Shown here piece by piece: positions 1-50,583 of a DNA stretch of 64,000 nt. The stretch is from assembly GCF_056712565.1 (NCBI RefSeq), contig NZ_CM160072.1. The stretch is one strand, 5' to 3'. Numbering within the stretch: position 1 is the first letter of the stretch; every line of letters begins with the position of its first letter. Under the pieces are notes generated by a model. That model was given only the letters and a program-made list of their open reading frames with translations, was not told the DNA's origin and searched no databases. Position numbers and translations under genes: made by a program.

Positions 1-703
1 ATATTGATGACACCATCTCCCGGCATTCACGGTCATTGACCAGATCGGTGGTCGGCACTAACCAGTCGGAAACATGAAACGCGAGGATGCGTTTTCCGGC
101 ACGCAGGATCTGACTGGCGAGATCCGGGTCCCACCAGACATGGTAGACATCTACCGCCACGCCGAGGCCAAATTCGCCATCGGGATCGAGTTCATCACAC
201 CAGTCCAGCGCCTGACGTAACGTGCACAGACAAGAACGATCGGCAGCAGTCATCGGGTGCAGTGGCTCCAGTGCAATTGGCACGCCGACCTCTTTCGAAT
301 GTGGCAGCAACTGGCGAATCCCTTGTTTCACCTGTTCCCGTGCTTCGTACAGATCTTTTGTTCCCATTGGCAGACCGCCAACCACCTGCATATAACAGGC
401 GGCGTTCAGTACAGCGGCGTCGTCCAGCGCCCGGCGGTTATCGTCAATCGCCAGTTTGCGCTCCGCCAGCGTCGGTGCGGTGTAGTAGGTGCTACGGCAC
501 AAACCGGAAACGTTCATGTTACTGGCAGCAAGCTGGCGGGCGATTTGCTGGAGATCTTCACTCTGCAACTCCCTGCGCCAGGGGGCAATCGCGCCAATAC
601 CGCGTGCGGCGCAGGCATCAATAATGGCGGGTAGCGGCGTTTTATAGCCCAGTGTCGCGGTATTGATACTGAATAAATCCGGGCGTTGTAACAGATCTCT
701 CAT
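1..703 (-). CDS. sugar phosphate isomerase/epimerase (xylose-isomerase-like TIM barrel), 3' end outside window
   Basis: Minus-strand ATG at 703, hand translation MRDLLQRPDLFSINTATLGYKTPLPAIIDACAARGIGAIAPW... runs without stop to window start; not in ORF track because truncated. Confidence 0.6.
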   Translation of the reverse strand, partial: MRDLLQRPDLFSINTATLGYKTPLPAIIDACAARGIGAIAPWRRELQSEDLQQIARQLAASNMNVSGLCRSTYYTAPTLAERKLAIDDNRRALDDAAVLNAACYMQVVGGLPMGTKDLYEAREQVKQGIRQLLPHSKEVGVPIALEPLHPMTAADRSCLCTLRQALDWCDELDPDGEFGLGVAVDVYHVWWDPDLASQILRAGKRILAFHVSDWLVPTTDLVNDRECREMVSSI

Positions 704-712
704 GATTCAGCC

Positions 713-1504
713 TCAGAAGCGCGGCATACTTAAGCCACCGTCAATGGCGACCGCCTGACCACAGGTGTAAATAAGTTTACCTTCCGCCATCGCGCGGACA
801 GTGGAAGCAATATCCGCCGGATAACCCCAACGTCCCCACGGCACCAGACCTTTGGCAATCAGTTCGTCGTAATAGGCCGTTGCCGGAATAGTCATATCGG
901 TTTTGATGAGACCAGGACGCACTTCATATACGCCAATTTGTTCATTACAAAGGCGAGCAGCAAACAGACGAGCAGCGGCAGAGACGGCAGTTTTGGCAAT
1001 GGTATATTCGCCGCGATTCATCGCCAGCATGATGGCGTTGATGGAACTGACGAAAATAATCGAGCGGTGCGGCAGTTCTGCTTCCGGTTTCGGCTGTGCC
1101 AGTAAGCGCTTACTGAATGCCTGAGCAAGGAAGAACGGTGCGCGGGTGTTAATGGCAATATTTTGGTCGAAGCTGTCTGGTTCGAGGTCGAGAAGGTCAC
1201 CGCGTTTTTTCACTGAAATGCCTGCGTTGTTGAGCAGGCAGTCCAGACGTCCCCACTGGTTTTGCGCTGCGTCGAGCATCTCTTCATGCAGGGAGAGATC
1301 GCCCACATCAGCAGGGAAGCAAATCACTTCCACGCCTTCCGCCAGACATTCTTGTTGTGTGGCATGTAATTTTTCTACGCTATCGGCATCCGGACGATCA
1401 TTAATCAGCAGATTAAATCCGCCACGCGCAAGCTCCAGCGCACAGCCCTTTCCAATACCACGAGCGGCTCCGGTAATCACGGCAACAGGACGAGTGGATT
1501 TCAT
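713..1504 (-). CDS. short-chain dehydrogenase/reductase (SDR) family oxidoreductase
   Basis: ORF 713-1639 trimmed to Met at 1504 (MKSTRPVAVITGAARGIGKG); TGxxxGIG Rossmann motif and YxxxK catalytic motif (YTIAK). Confidence 0.75.
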   Translation of the reverse strand: MKSTRPVAVITGAARGIGKGCALELARGGFNLLINDRPDADSVEKLHATQQECLAEGVEVICFPADVGDLSLHEEMLDAAQNQWGRLDCLLNNAGISVKKRGDLLDLEPDSFDQNIAINTRAPFFLAQAFSKRLLAQPKPEAELPHRSIIFVSSINAIMLAMNRGEYTIAKTAVSAAARLFAARLCNEQIGVYEVRPGLIKTDMTIPATAYYDELIAKGLVPWGRWGYPADIASTVRAMAEGKLIYTCGQAVAIDGGLSMPRF

Positions 1505-1571
1505 ACAATAGCTCTCTTTTTTGAATTTTGTTTCCTTAGTGATGATTAGCTTGCGACTGGAGGATAAAAAG

Positions 1572-1593
1572 ATCAACCATCTAGTTGGTTGAT
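1572..1593. promoter_or_regulatory. 8-bp inverted repeat ATCAACCA-N6-TGGTTGAT in divergent SDR/TetR intergenic region; candidate TetR operator
   Basis: Perfect inverted repeat read directly in the 211-bp divergent promoter region. Confidence 0.4.
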
Positions 1594-1715
1594 ATGCGAT
1601 GGCGATCACAGGACATTTGATAACCTGATGAAAGTACAAGTTTTTGCCCTTTTTTCTGAAGCTGAAATCAAATCAGGTTATGATAGTCACCACGAAGAGG
1701 TCGTGGGGAAGCGTT

Positions 1716-2363
1716 ATGTATCTTGATACCAGCAACGTACAGAGCCTGAAAGAAAAGCTGCTGTTATGCGCGGTTAATGAATTTGCCGAATATGGTTACG
1801 AAGGGGCCAGAGTCGATAATATCGTCAAGGCCGCGGGGTGCAGTAAACAGACGGTTTATCACCACTTTGGTAATAAAGAAAATTTATTTATCGAAGTACT
1901 GGAATATACCTGGAACGATATTCGACAAAAAGAAAAGGCCCTTGATTTCTCAGATCTTCCGCCACAGAAAGCCATTGAGAAAATAATCGATTTTACATGG
2001 GATTATTATATTTCTAATCCCTGGTTTTTAAAAATTGTGCATAGTGAAAATCAAAGTAAGGGTGTGCATTATGCAAAATCACAGCGTCTTTTAGAAATTA
2101 ACCATGCGCACTTGCAGTTAATGGAATCCTTATTGGATGAAGGGAAGAAACAAAATATTTTTAAGCCAGATATCGACCCATTGCAGGTGAATATTAATAT
2201 TGCTGCGCTTGGGGGATATTATTTGATCAACCAGCATACGCTTGGCCTGGTTTATCACATCAGTATGGTTTCACCGCAGGCACTGGAAGCCAGACGTAAG
2301 GTCATCAAAGAGACGATCCTTAGCTGGCTTTTGGTTGACCCTTCATCTACCGCGCGCGAATAA
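1716..2363 (+). CDS. TetR/AcrR family transcriptional regulator
   Basis: ORF 1644-2363 trimmed to Met at 1716 preceded by GGGGAA; N-terminal HTH region ([32 protein letters not shown]) typical of TetR. Confidence 0.75.
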
Positions 2364-2985
2364 AACTGCCATCCGGCTGGCGGGTAAACAGGACCTGTTG
2401 ATTATTCCCCGTATCAATGGTTAAGCCCGTCACCACGCCGCTGGCGTTCTGGCGGATTTTCACCATCTGCCCGTTTTGCAAATTACTCAGTGGCTTATCC
2501 GCGCCTTCTACCTGCGCCATGGCATAGACATCGGTAGCGGGCAGTCCGTGGTCGCGGAACAGCTGCGCCATCGTTTTACCGGGTTCGACACGATAGGAGC
2601 GCCATTGATTATCAATTCCGCTATCTGGCTGGAATGGTTGCGTATGGGTGGTTTGCGGCTGCTCTTCTGGTTGGCCTTCCTGTATTGGTTCTGGAGCGAC
2701 CGGAGCCACCTGATCAGGATCATTTTGTGGCGTGACTAATTGCGCCCGCAGCTGTTCTTCTGTCGGTGGTTGTGATTGCGACTGAATATCTAACTGTGCT
2801 TCACGCGTCACCACCGGCGCGTTGGGCGTATCATCAGATGGAAGCAGAAATCCGACCACCAATACAATGGCGGCAATAATGATCCCCCGACGATGCATCG
2901 GCGGCAGCGGGTCCATGAAGCGAAAATTGTCCGGCGCGTGCCAGACTTTCTCCAGGGTTGGTTTTAGTTCAAAGCGCCCGGGCAT
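2347..2985 (-). CDS. ytfB: OapA/YtfB cell-division protein (LysM/OapA domain)
   Basis: ORF 2347-3021 trimmed to Met at 2985 ([13 protein letters not shown]...) preceded by AGGAGG; Pro/Gln-rich linker and C-terminal OapA-like region. Confidence 0.85.
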
Positions 2986-3202
2986 GGTTTCCTCCTGCTC
3001 CGCGTCTTGTTCCTCAATCATAGCCTATGAATAAGCTAACGCTATGATGTCCGTGGTAAACCCGCCTTTATTATATTCATACGGGATATTGCTATTGTTT
3101 CTTTTTCCCCGGGATTTGTCATCATTCCCGCGACAAAGTTTTACCCAAAGAAGTGTGGCTGATATGCTGCCCGCTACTTTATACCCTAAGAAAGGAAATA
3201 CG

Positions 3203-8889: not shown

Positions 8890-10833
8890 TTACTTACTCA
8901 GATCCACCTGATAAATCGCAAACCCGATATCATCGGTCGCGACTTTATTCATCGGATACTGCCCTTTCTCTTTAATAAACGCTGCGGCTTTATCTGACGG
9001 AGAGGTTTCGAAACGGATATCCAGTTTCTTATCGCCAGCTATCGGTGCTAAACGCCAGTTGTTATCTGCCGCCGGGTGAATTTCCCCCGCACGTTTCGAC
9101 TCATCAGCAATCCACGCTGCCAGCACCGAGCGGTTCTCATCCGGTGAAGCAAAAGCGATATGGCTGTCGCCCGTACCGGCAAATTTGCCGCCGTAAGCGC
9201 GATAGTTATTGGTGGCAACGAGGAACATGGCGTTCGGATCAATCGGCTTGCCGTTAAAGGTCAGGTTCTTAATCCTTTCCGCATTGGCATTAATCATCTG
9301 GCACTCGCCGTCATAACGGGCGGGCTGGGTAACATCAATCTGATAATTCACACCATCAATAACATCAAAGTTATAGGTGCGGAAACCATCCCAGTTGATG
9401 AGTGACTGTGGTTTCGTGCTGTTAGGATCAATCTGGTTAAACTGTCCGGCGGAGCACTCCAGCCACTCTTTCACCTCTTTACCGCTGGCTTTCACCACAA
9501 TCAGCGTATTGGGGTAGAGATAAAGATCGGCGGCATTACGGAAGGTCAACTGGCCTTTTTCCACCTCCACATAGCTTGCGGGGTCATTTTTGCGACCACC
9601 AACTTTAAACGGTGCGGCAGCTGAAAGCACTGGCAGTTTTGCCAGATCCGGATCGCCCTGAATGTAATGCTCGACATACGCTTTTTGCGCGTTGTTCACC
9701 ACCTGCACGGTCGGATCGTCCTGCACAAGCGCCAGATAGCTATACATATTGTCGGCAGATTTACCGATTGGCTTGCTGACGAACTGGCGTGTGGCATCGT
9801 GATCGGCTTTGAGTGTTTCTACCAGCTTGCTGTCTTCCGCCGCGAGGGATTTTTTATTCGCGATGTCGTAAATCGGCCGTGCTTCCGCTTTCGCCTGCGT
9901 CACCTGCCATTTACCGCTGTCATTACTGAGTTGTAAGTCGACCACACCAAGATGATCGCCCCACATGCCTGGCATTACCGCCGGAACACCATTCAGCGTG
10001 CCTTTCGCGATATCAGCCCCTTCGATATCAGCAAAATCTTTACCTGGGAAAACGGCGTGAGCATGGCCAAACATAATGGCGTTAACGCCCGGAATTTCAC
10101 TGAGGTAATAAACTGAGTTTTCCGCCATCACTTTATACGGATCGGCAGACAGCCCGGAATGCGCCAGAACGACAACGACATCGGCACCTTTCTCGCGCAT
10201 TTCAGGCACGTATTTGCGCACGGTTTCGGTAATATCATTCACCGTCACTTTCCCGGATAAATTAGCTTTATCCCAGCCCATGATTTGTGGCGGGACGACG
10301 CCAATATAACCAATCTTCAGCGTCTGTTTTTTTCCGTCTTTATCGACCACTTCGGTGTCTTTAATTAAATACGGTGTAAACATTGGCTGTTTGGTTCTGG
10401 CGTCAATGACGTTGGCATTTACATAAGGGAATTTCGCTCCCGCCAGCGCATTTTTCAGATAATCCAGACCGTAGTTAAACTCGTGGTTGCCAAGCGTGCC
10501 GACGGTATAGTCCAGCGTATTTAATGCCTTATAGACCGGGTGAATATCACCTGCTTTTAATCCTTTCGCCGACATGTAATCTGCCAGCGGACTCCCCTGA
10601 ATCAAATCGCCGTTATCGACCAGTACGCTGTTTTTCACTTCATTGCGGGCATCGTTAATCAGGCTTGCCGTACGTACCAGTCCGAATTTTTCCGTGGCGG
10701 TGTCTTTGTAATAATCGAAATCCATCATGTTGCTATGCAGATCAGTGGTTTCCATGATACGCAGATCGACCGTCGCTGCATTCACACTGGCGGCAATCAG
10801 CGTGGCCAGGAGCGTTGCGCTAAACTTAATCAT
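8890..10833 (-). CDS. cpdB: periplasmic 2',3'-cyclic-nucleotide 2'-phosphodiesterase / 3'-nucleotidase
   Basis: ORF 8890-10842, likely start MIKFSATLL at 10833; signal peptide then metallophosphatase/5'-nucleotidase domains. Confidence 0.9.
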
Positions 10834-49223: not shown

Positions 49224-50447
49224 TTAGATACCGTCACGATGCAAAGGGCAACTCATGCAACGTGCGCCGCCACGTCCGCGGCCTAATTCATCACCGGGGA
49301 TGGGTAAAACGGTGATGCCTGCTTTGTCATATTTTTCGTTAGTCCAGATGTTGCGCTCGTAGCCCACTACCACTCCCGGCCGAAGCGTGAGCACATTGTT
49401 AGCGTCATTCCACTGTTCGCGTTCTGCCTCAAAGGCATCACCCCCCGTGGTGATTAAACGTACCTGGTCAATACCGAGGGCTTTTTCGATAGCATGGAGG
49501 AGTGTGCTTTCTTGAGTACGTTTCAGGCCGCCGTGACCGTCAGGTGTTAGCGTCCAGCAATTAACATCCGGGCGCACAACTTCGGGATAAACCGAGAAGG
49601 TGTCGATATCGATATGAGTCATAACGGTGTCAAGATGCATACAGGAGCGGTGTTTAGGCAGCTCAACAGCGATTACCCGTTCAGCCTGACGATGTTTAAA
49701 CAATGCCTGAGCAAGAAACTCGATTCCTTGTGGCGTGGTGCGTTCAGACATGCCGATCAACACGGCCCCCCGACCAATCACCAGCACATCACCACCTTCT
49801 AACGTGGCGTGGTCATAATTAATATTCTCGTCGCCGAAATATTTAATAAATTCGCCGCCAGCAAATTGTGGATGCCAGCGATAAATAGCGCGTAGATTAT
49901 TGGTTTCACGTTGGCGAGCAGGTTTTGCCATTGGATTAATCGATACACCGTTATAAATCCAGCATGAGGTATCACGCGTAAATAAATGATTCGGTAACGG
50001 CTTCATAATGAAATCATTAATATCGTGGGTATCAACCACCATATTTTTAATTGAGGCGGGAATTTCACTATAAGTCAGCCCACCACTTAAATGACGAGCA
50101 AGGTCCCGGTGTGACATCTCTGCAAGCCAGGTGCGAACGTCAGTAGCAAACGTAGGGCCGAGTCGGTAATCTGATATTTGTGTTTCCAGTAACCAGCTTT
50201 TGGCTTCCGGGATATCCAATGTTTGTGTTAGTAAATCAGTGAGTAACAGAACTTCTATCCCTTGCTGGCGCAGCGTATTGGCGAAAATATCATGCTCTTC
50301 ACCTGCCCGCTCAACGGACAATACATCGTCAAATAACAACTCCTGGCAATTGGATGGTGTTAGACGTTTCAGACTGAGATTTGGGCGATGCAACATAACG
50401 CTGCGTAGTTGTCCAATTTCAGAACCAACATAATGCTTTTCCATCAT
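49224..50447 (-). CDS. arginine deiminase
   Basis: 407-aa ORF; amidinotransferase-family sequence with C-terminal catalytic Cys region (RCMSCPL). Confidence 0.85.
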
Positions 50448-50567: not shown

Positions 50568-50583
50568 TGTGACGACTTTCACA
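50568..50583. promoter_or_regulatory. perfect CRP consensus site TGTGA-N6-TCACA upstream of the ADI operon
   Basis: TGTGACGACTTTCACA read directly, about 120-135 bp upstream of the arginine deiminase start. Confidence 0.5.

Follow-up and report, generated by a model that had tools for sequence, protein, structure and literature searches.

The first 2,363 positions of a 64,000-nucleotide stretch of contig NZ_CM160072.1 (RefSeq assembly GCF_056712565.1; the whole stretch is referred to here as the window) contain ytfA, a gene for a TetR/AcrR-family regulator, and two genes transcribed away from it, which encode a short-chain dehydrogenase/reductase (SDR) and a xylose-isomerase-like TIM barrel. 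We consider it likely that this locus is the YtfA- and CRP-controlled head of an accessory operon, perhaps for a hexuronate-like polyhydroxy carboxylate, and that the operon is inactive in this lineage. The two genes head a CoA-dependent organic-acid operon, and the 'small sugar module' that an earlier note had seen in the same DNA is too narrow a description of it.

The extent of the operon was established with E. coli ZJ3920, which is 100% identical to the window over bases 1-2363 and whose RefSeq annotation was used both for coordinates and for leftward extension. All coordinates in the earlier note match the open reading frame (ORF) positions, the sequence read-out and this annotation, and its divergent arrangement of TetR gene and operon was confirmed by the coordinates and annotation alike. 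What it had taken for a small SDR/isomerase module proved, on leftward extension, to be the head of six genes, in the order SDR, TIM barrel, enoyl-CoA hydratase/isomerase (ECH_1), CoA transferase, a 690-residue flavoprotein resembling fumarate reductase and L-aspartate oxidase, and transporter, with neighbours joined by gaps of at most 10 bp or by overlaps. The TIM-barrel gene starts at position 703 on the minus strand, 9 bp after the SDR stop codon, and extends beyond the window edge. The CoA transferase, whose gene lies outside the window, is a fused family-I enzyme (PF01144) with PcaI- and PcaJ-type halves at residues 5-244 and 278-483; it matches E. coli YdiF (2AHU) over residues 8-508 with E = 8e-117. 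Its stop codon is overlapped by the start of the flavoprotein gene (ATGA), and the flavoprotein has the FAD_binding_2 fold. This gene order is kept from Escherichia to clusters in which the TetR protein is 57% identical. Besides the four further genes to the left, the earlier note had passed over a frameshift of the TIM-barrel gene inside the window and a CRP site abutting a palindrome in the control region. Its idea of a ligand-responsive catabolic module is supported, with the ligand response being a prediction.

The control region between the SDR gene and ytfA holds a perfect 8-bp inverted repeat, ATCAACCA-TCTAGT-TGGTTGAT, for which a role as TetR operator had been thought plausible; the repeat was found as described, and that role is favoured by a strong phylogenetic footprint. 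Because the central CTAG is itself palindromic, the whole stretch forms a palindrome of 22 bp, with 11-nt arms that are 91% complementary and one T/T mismatch. It has no second match in the 64-kb window, even at 2 mismatches (0.03 expected). Perfect 8-bp inverted repeats with a spacer of at most 10 occurred in 149 of 5000 shuffles (3%) of the 211-bp region; the palindrome alone is therefore suggestive, and it is conservation that gives it significance. We aligned eight TetR-SDR intergenic regions: four from E. coli (three divergent variants and one further genome) and one each from E. albertii, E. whittamii, Klebsiella spallanzanii and Entomohabitans teleogrylli. The columns were on average 48% identical, with the operator and CRP blocks standing out, and GATCAACCATCTnGTTGGTTG was invariant in all eight. 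The motif CAACCA-N6-TGGTTG occurs once per locus in 13 of 13 enterobacterial loci, Salmonella included, and its core AACCA-N6-TGGTT is kept in three metagenomic clusters (L017, L028 and L027) with TetR proteins 57-67% identical. In most loci, among them L017 and L028, the core lies 67-73 bp from the SDR start; L027 has two copies, 35 and 81 bp from it. A search of L021, a low-GC TetR/SDR/flavoprotein cluster, gave no convincing copy of the operator. Across the same loci, the palindrome is conserved together with the nearly invariant helix-turn-helix (HTH) of the regulator. On this footprint, the palindrome is very probably the YtfA operator.

Other inverted repeats of the region (1620-1629/1672-1681 and 1687-1709) were neither conserved nor covarying in other strains and were taken as chance. 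The first of these is a perfect 10-bp repeat, ATAACCTGAT / ATCAGGTTAT, which lies, with 42 bp separating its arms, on the stretch from the CRP site to the probable ytfA -10 element; it is probably fortuitous. In Entomohabitans (L009, about 9780-9990), an insertion of ~210 bp lies between the CRP site and ytfA, and the operator and CRP block are intact.

The CRP site, TGCGATGGCGATCACA, begins two bases past the palindrome and has one mismatch to TGTGA-N6-TCACA. The centres of the two elements are 20 bp apart, and the operator is the one nearer to the SDR gene. The CRP half-sites recur with unchanged offset in Salmonella (TGTGATATTGATCACT), K. spallanzanii (TGTGAAGATGATCACC) and Entomohabitans (CGTGAGAATGATCACG), and are also kept in L017 and L027. 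In enterotoxigenic E. coli (ETEC) H10407, a CRP ChIP-seq peak lies between 'ETEC_4557 (ETEC-specific)' and ytfA, with the site TGTGATCACTATCGCA (Haycocks et al., PMC4287617), and thus CRP occupancy of the control region has experimental support in a related strain. The ETEC site is the reverse complement of the sequence in E. coli variants of the L003 type, which carry a different transporter (see below), and the site of this strain differs from it at two spacer positions.

A weak -10 hexamer, GCTAAT (minus strand, 1550-1545), would put CRP near -62, a class I position, and the operator near -42, over the -35 region, where a bound repressor could occlude the promoter. For ytfA itself, the strongest candidate -10 is TATGAT at 1679-1684, which is conserved, with TATAGT in its place in L017. 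Based on this layout, we propose that a YtfA dimer, or a pair of dimers, occupies the palindrome. The bound protein would block transcription, since the palindrome is placed on the SDR side of the CRP site, about at the -35 of the operon. The pathway substrate or an intermediate would free YtfA from the DNA, and CRP-cAMP would then activate the operon, probably in the class I manner and from ~62 bp ahead of the start.

The window copy of the pathway shows signs of decay. Its TIM-barrel gene, flagged 'frameshifted' in RefSeq, stays in frame for residues 1-225 of 280 only. Seven family-invariant columns are lost past the shift (G226, G229, G231, R239, E243, W260 and R275), which, in a structure model of an intact orthologue, belong to the final portion of the barrel. 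That orthologue aligns with PF01261 at positions 1-243 of 249, and its model is a barrel with a pLDDT of 86; the window copy falls short of a complete (beta/alpha)8 barrel. The pathway is therefore probably inactive in the lineage of this strain. Polarity should be slight, given that the out-of-frame ORF stops 3 nt from the start codon of the hydratase gene, but one enzyme of the pathway is probably missing. The exact frameshifted 61-mer is present in 105 complete genomes (NU14, APEC O18, MS8345, ExPEC XM and others) and the intact 62-mer in 1077. Independent lesions affect further genes of the operon: IS1 in the MFS transporter gene of NU14, UM146 and SF-173, IS1 in dctP of CUWW10 and others, and an internal stop codon in the CoA transferase of H22 (L020, 6525-8066). 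Lesions in several operon genes suggest recurrent decay of the pathway, and repeated inactivation by frameshift, IS1 insertion and nonsense mutation suggests relaxed selection in some extraintestinal lineages.

Table 1. Features of the ytfA locus, in window coordinates
Feature	Position	Strand	Basis
1-bp deletion, TTCCAC to TTCAC (plus strand), frameshift after TIM-barrel codon 225	27..28	.	Alignment with intact alleles
Xylose-isomerase-like TIM-barrel gene, operon gene 2, 5' 703 bases; pseudogene here	1..703	-	AP_endonuc_2; RefSeq 'frameshifted'
Classical SDR oxidoreductase, operon gene 1, 263 aa, annotated '3-ketoacyl-ACP reductase'	713..1504	-	adh_short, adh_short_C2
Divergent control region, SDR gene/ytfA, 211 bp	1505..1715	.	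Sequence read-out
Predicted YtfA operator, palindrome ATCAACCAtctagtTGGTTGAT, centre 1582.5	1572..1593	.	Uniqueness in window and cross-genus invariance
CRP site TGCGAtggcgaTCACA, centre 1602.5	1595..1610	.	Sequence; half-sites conserved
ytfA, full-length TetR/AcrR-family regulator, 215 aa	1716..2363	+	TetR_N HTH and TetR_C_29 (Pfam)

The nature of the substrate is suggested mainly by the transporters, of which the operon has two alternative types. In ZJ3920 and in this strain, the last gene encodes a major facilitator superfamily (MFS) protein of the D-galactonate (anion:cation symporter) subfamily, beyond which come hipB/hipA-like genes and, after them, rplI. Other E. coli lineages, 91-94% identical over the query, have in place of the MFS gene and hipBA a DctPQM transporter of the tripartite ATP-independent periplasmic (TRAP) class. 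Among solved structures, the TRAP binding protein is closest to 4OVR, 4X8R, 4N8Y, 4N15/4LN5 and 4N91 (six entries, E 1e-62 to 1e-71), and its alignment retains the RSFY, RVQ and AEN motifs. Of these relatives, 4X8R and 4N8Y were solved with glucuronate and galacturonate in place, and 4N91 binds D-glucuronate; 4N15 comes in only as the template on which the D-glucuronate binder STM3169 was modelled (PMC11668362, PMC7660916). Meanwhile, the best match of the MFS protein is TIGR00893, the D-galactonate-transporter subfamily, at 314 bits against a cut-off of 395. Judged by these relatives, both alternative transporters are predicted carboxylate importers of the sugar-acid type. With low confidence, we propose a hexuronate-like polyhydroxy carboxylate as the substrate. 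The likeness to the hexuronate Uxa/Uxu system is confined to the transporters, and the operon has no gene for a uronate isomerase, an altronate/mannonate oxidoreductase or a dehydratase. The 'sugar' flavour of the original description thus survives in part. It agrees with transporters of sugar-acid families and with a TIM barrel whose fold neighbours act on keto-sugars and cyclitols, but 'sugar-phosphate isomerase' is merely a generic annotation name.

Two observations concern the transporter end of the operon and its relatives. A gene for a hipB-like HTH protein and a hipA-family toxin gene accompany the MFS-type operon (L001, 7181-8943, to the left of the window, on the rplI side of the MFS gene); in Z135-3 and H22, the pair has a frameshift or an internal stop. 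E. coli SF-166 carries a second accessory TRAP transporter between ftsP and ygiQ (L029), with a binding protein 56% identical to DctP of the operon; it clusters with genes of the Ldh, zinc-ADH and mannitol-dehydrogenase families and a GntR regulator, and looks like another sugar-acid locus.

The enzymes point to chemistry beside a carbonyl group. The nearest structures to the TIM barrel are 3QC0/3JU2 (SMc04130) and 7VPF, at 42-51% identity and a TM of about 0.86. As clues to the reaction these were set aside, all being 'putative sugar isomerase' or structural-genomics entries found by fold search. The next fold neighbours (IolI, Hyi-like EC1530, ketose 3-epimerases and YcjR) are at most 21% identical. 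Those that have been characterised (IolI, ketose 3-epimerases, the 3-keto-glucoside epimerase YcjR and a dehydroshikimate-dehydratase fusion) use sugars or cyclitols and work at positions next to a carbonyl. The flavoprotein represents a distinct family with 413 representatives at E<1e-30. Its profile matches NadB and Sdh/Frd in the FAD and C-terminal helical domains (E about 1e-29), and the family keeps a His/Arg pair that aligns with NadB His351/Arg386. The capping domain, at about residues 255-396, does not align; QFHPT is replaced by QFG, from which the His is absent, and the family has invariant motifs of its own, FRWNLSGTYQQ and KGYQWPF.

We sampled five non-enterobacterial neighbourhoods of the flavoprotein. 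An SDR gene was adjacent in four, a TIM barrel in two and an OYE-like domain or gene in two. One had the arrangement SDR-flavoprotein-TIM-DctPQM without CoA enzymes, and one included a PfkB kinase and a LacI regulator. In the L017 and L028 clusters, a flavodoxin gene follows the transporter at the cluster end. From these contexts we infer a conserved core of SDR and flavoprotein, often with TIM barrel and TRAP transporter, which would act on a polyhydroxy carboxylate; enterobacteria appear to have added the CoA transferase and the crotonase-family enzyme to it.

Our preferred, though conjectural, sequence of reactions for these proteins is as follows. The SDR would oxidise a hydroxyl group to a ketone, and the TIM barrel would isomerise or beta-eliminate beside that ketone. 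The flavoprotein would then reduce the resulting alpha,beta-unsaturated acid, enone or CoA ester with electrons from flavodoxin or an OYE-like partner, and the CoA transferase and hydratase would complete the conversion on the thioester, by hydration or cleavage. This chemistry of oxidation, isomerisation or elimination, ene-reduction and thioester steps is a conjecture that we regard as more doubtful than not. We hold somewhat more readily, though still tentatively, the broader possibility that the operon is an undescribed route for a gut-available polyhydroxy carboxylate, hexuronate-like or quinate/shikimate, in which the core carries out oxidation, elimination and ene-reduction and which constitutes a strain-variable niche or redox trait.

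Several points weigh against a YtfA/CRP-controlled operon for a hexuronate-like acid. The TRAP binding protein is just ~40-45% identical to the uronate binders, which bears on specificity. No member of the TIM-barrel subfamily among its fold-search neighbours has been characterised, and both the order of the enzymes and the direction in which the flavoprotein works are conjectural. As named in the annotation (3-ketoacyl-ACP reductase, FadX-like transferase, enoyl-CoA hydratase), the enzymes would suit a beta-oxidation-like route equally. A literature search found no paper on the function of the operon, its sole finds being ytfA variability (PMC6790063) and the ETEC CRP peak (PMC4287617). On the side of regulation, a scan of the intergenic region for the sigma-70 consensus found no promoter, and the promoter positions given above are therefore our reading of weak hexamers. 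Autoregulation of ytfA is not evident, since TATGAT lies ~90 bp from the palindrome.

Among the competing explanations, the one that survives best is a mainly reductive pathway that serves as an electron sink and not as a carbon source. Its substrate would be a hydroaromatic acid or an unsaturated sugar acid, for example quinate, shikimate or a 4,5-unsaturated uronate. This would be oxidised and dehydrated and the resulting enone or enoate reduced by the flavoprotein, with CoA-dependent dehydration to follow. Shikimate and quinate are reduced by gut microbes, and as six-membered-ring polyhydroxy carboxylates they share the shape of a pyranuronate. Proteins that combine OYE-like and FAD_binding_2 domains are NADH:enoate reductases, and relatives of the flavoprotein are fused to or adjoin OYE-like domains. 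The conserved His/Arg pair would fit such a role, as would the flavodoxin gene that ends the L017 and L028 clusters, which is expected if the flavoprotein needs a donor. The E. coli and Salmonella operons, however, encode no donor protein, and the TIM barrel is far from known 3-dehydroshikimate dehydratases (5HMQ is 19% identical by fold, and AsbF-type enzymes were not among the sequence matches). The literature search gave no support for these substrates either, and we regard the explanation as unlikely.

A beta-oxidation-like pathway for a short-chain or 3-keto/3-hydroxy acid of the acetoacetate or hydroxybutyrate type would make different use of the same enzymes: the CoA transferase would activate the acid, the flavoprotein desaturate it, the hydratase hydrate it and the SDR oxidise the 3-hydroxyacyl-CoA. 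The names of several proteins invite this reading, namely PRK12745 '3-ketoacyl-ACP reductase', a short-chain enoyl-CoA hydratase, and a transferase similar to Staphylococcus FadX and to YdiF. The top NCBIfam match of YtfA is Bacillus FadR, although far below cut-off. Such a pathway is nevertheless distinctly unlikely. Neither a thiolase nor an acyl-CoA dehydrogenase is encoded in the operon, a keto-sugar-type TIM barrel is constant in the enterobacterial operon, the transporters are of the sugar-acid type, and the SDR/flavoprotein/TIM core is found with TRAP and without any CoA enzyme. Moreover, every enzyme match save PRK12745 falls under its family cut-off.

Very improbable, in our view, is the version of the earlier note, a self-contained TetR-regulated pair of SDR and sugar(-phosphate) isomerase for a neutral sugar or polyol. 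Pfam does assign the AP_endonuc_2 and SDR folds, the fold neighbours of the TIM barrel are keto-sugar/inosose isomerases or epimerases, and one distant flavoprotein context has a PfkB kinase and a LacI regulator. Yet the pair is followed by tightly spaced hydratase, CoA-transferase, flavoprotein and transporter genes in conserved order, and both transporter types import carboxylates. No kinase or phosphotransferase gene is present in the operon, which makes a sugar-phosphate substrate unlikely. Finally, that the palindrome is a chance repeat, an RNA hairpin or a terminator is extremely improbable: 3% of region shuffles do hold a perfect 8-bp inverted repeat, and a scan lists the stem on the minus strand (1593-1572), followed by CTTTTTATCC, as terminator-like, but its letters, not mere pairing, are invariant across genera and show no compensatory changes, although the flanks are just 48% conserved, its distances from the SDR start and from the CRP site are fixed, the 8-pair stem with its 3 G-C pairs is weak, no upstream transcription unit requires termination there, and an Rfam scan of 1-3200 gave zero matches. 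Since changes are non-compensatory and the T-run is not conserved, the terminator-like call is best seen as a by-product of a protein-binding palindrome.

We return to the proposed operon for a hexuronate-like acid and to the two complete proteins encoded at its head. The three folds named in the earlier note were recovered with Pfam models (TetR_N and TetR_C_29, adh_short, and AP_endonuc_2). In YtfA, TetR_N (PF00440) scores 53.6 bits against a cut-off of 24 at residues 19-61, and TetR_C_29 (PF17938) scores 106 bits over the whole model at residues 83-201. Identity to orthologues from Salmonella, Citrobacter, Klebsiella, Leminorella and others ranges from 57% to 99%, and the HTH region hardly varies. 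None of the NCBIfam equivalogs compared (Bacillus FadR, RutR, BetI, AcrR, KstR2 and others) came near its cut-off; the top match, the Bacillus fatty-acid regulator FadR, reached 47.6 bits against 200. The label 'KstR2' on some Salmonella YtfA records is automatic naming. The gene for YtfA overlaps the convergent ytfB by 17 bp at its 3' end.

The translated SDR displays the motifs of its family: TGxxxGxG as ITGAARGIG, NNAG as LLNNAGIS, the catalytic-type Ser as VSSINA and YxxxK as EYTIAKTA. It matches PF00106 and PF13561 and passes the legacy NCBIfam model PRK12745 with 420 bits. The RefSeq name would make it FabG, an assignment that we rejected: TIGR01830 gives 126.5 bits against a cut-off of 297.75, PRK05653 models are also under cut-off, and the context is catabolic. 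On these scores, the SDR is not FabG despite its product name.

The operon is a variable trait of E. coli. Among 5426 complete genomes of the species, 3128 (~58%) carry at least 80% of window positions 1-2363, the MFS gene is present in 1685 and the gene for the TRAP binding protein in 1468. The remaining genomes, K-12 included, have the last ~400 bp of ytfA alone, beside yjfZ. Both the strain variability that had been suspected and the K-12 remnant named in the earlier note proved correct: the latter is a 133-codon 3' piece of ytfA, annotated as a pseudogene. ytfA has been described as a variably present TetR-family gene (PMC6790063). E. albertii, E. whittamii, K. spallanzanii, Entomohabitans and Salmonella have the same operon between rplI and ytfB; in Salmonella, most contigs that carry the regulator have the locus. 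Its occupation of one locus across genera indicates that it is ancestral there and was lost in the K-12 type.

A scan of genome contigs with a TetR profile returned 10 loci. Two distant ones, from a Halomonas and an alphaproteobacterium, encode TetR and TIM-barrel proteins, 33% and 48% identical respectively, beside GFO/MocA, DUF993 and TctABC genes; these were discarded as relatives of the operon, since they belong to a different pathway and are weakly informative. The Halomonas socia locus (L012, 1286-10614) contains the 48%-identical TIM barrel, a second TIM barrel, a GFO/MocA oxidoreductase, DUF993, a TctCBA tricarboxylate-type transporter and the 33%-identical TetR. It represents a different carboxylate pathway that uses the same TIM-barrel subfamily.

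Being absent from K-12, the operon escaped the classical genetics that defined E. coli metabolism. Identification of its substrate would assign functions to SMc04130-type TIM barrels, to the 690-residue flavoprotein family and to TetR_C_29 regulators, which have no characterised members, and might explain niche differences among E. coli lineages. The locus is a clean regulatory unit, made up of a single repressor, an invariant operator and a CRP site, and a possible biosensor for the inducer, and hence for the substrate. Elsewhere in the window, a perfect CRP consensus core, TGTGACGACTTTCACA, is located at 50568-50583, ~120 bp upstream of an accessory arcA-like arginine deiminase gene (minus-strand ORF 49224-50447); this stretch is present in 596 of the 5426 genomes.

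Compared with known systems, the operon combines familiar parts in its own way. Its transporters resemble those of hexuronate uptake by TRAP (4X8R, 4N8Y, 4N91, STM3169) and by MFS proteins (ExuT/DgoT-type anion:cation symporters), but no Uxa, Uxu or Kdu genes are linked to it and the MFS protein is under the subfamily cut-off. The TIM barrel belongs to the same subfamily as SMc04130 (3QC0/3JU2) and the Paenibacillus sp. R4 'putative sugar isomerase' (7VPF), and, unlike them, the window copy is frameshifted. YdiF is an acetyl-CoA:short-chain-acid family-I CoA transferase. The operon enzyme is likewise a fused alpha/beta family-I protein (513 residues, 531 in YdiF) with the same RefSeq product name, but it is a paralogue from a different operon and is translationally coupled to the flavoprotein gene (ATGA). 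The flavoprotein shares the FAD_binding_2 fold with the soluble fumarate-reductase/L-aspartate-oxidase family (NadB, FrdA/SdhA, flavocytochrome c3, urocanate reductase) and conserves the His/Arg pair aligned with that of NadB, whereas its capping domain is unrelated and it has no iron-sulfur or membrane partner, cytochrome or FMN_bind domain. YtfA is built like the regulators of TetR/tetA, AcrR/acrAB, RutR, BetI and KstR2, with a TetR_N HTH, an alpha-helical C-terminal domain, ~215 residues, a divergent presumptive target and a palindrome in the shared intergenic region; it differs from them in that its C-terminal domain is TetR_C_29 and it reaches no equivalog model. The regulatory logic, a local TetR repressor together with CRP, is textbook, and the locus is a conventional repressor- and CRP-controlled catabolic operon rather than a new kind of system.

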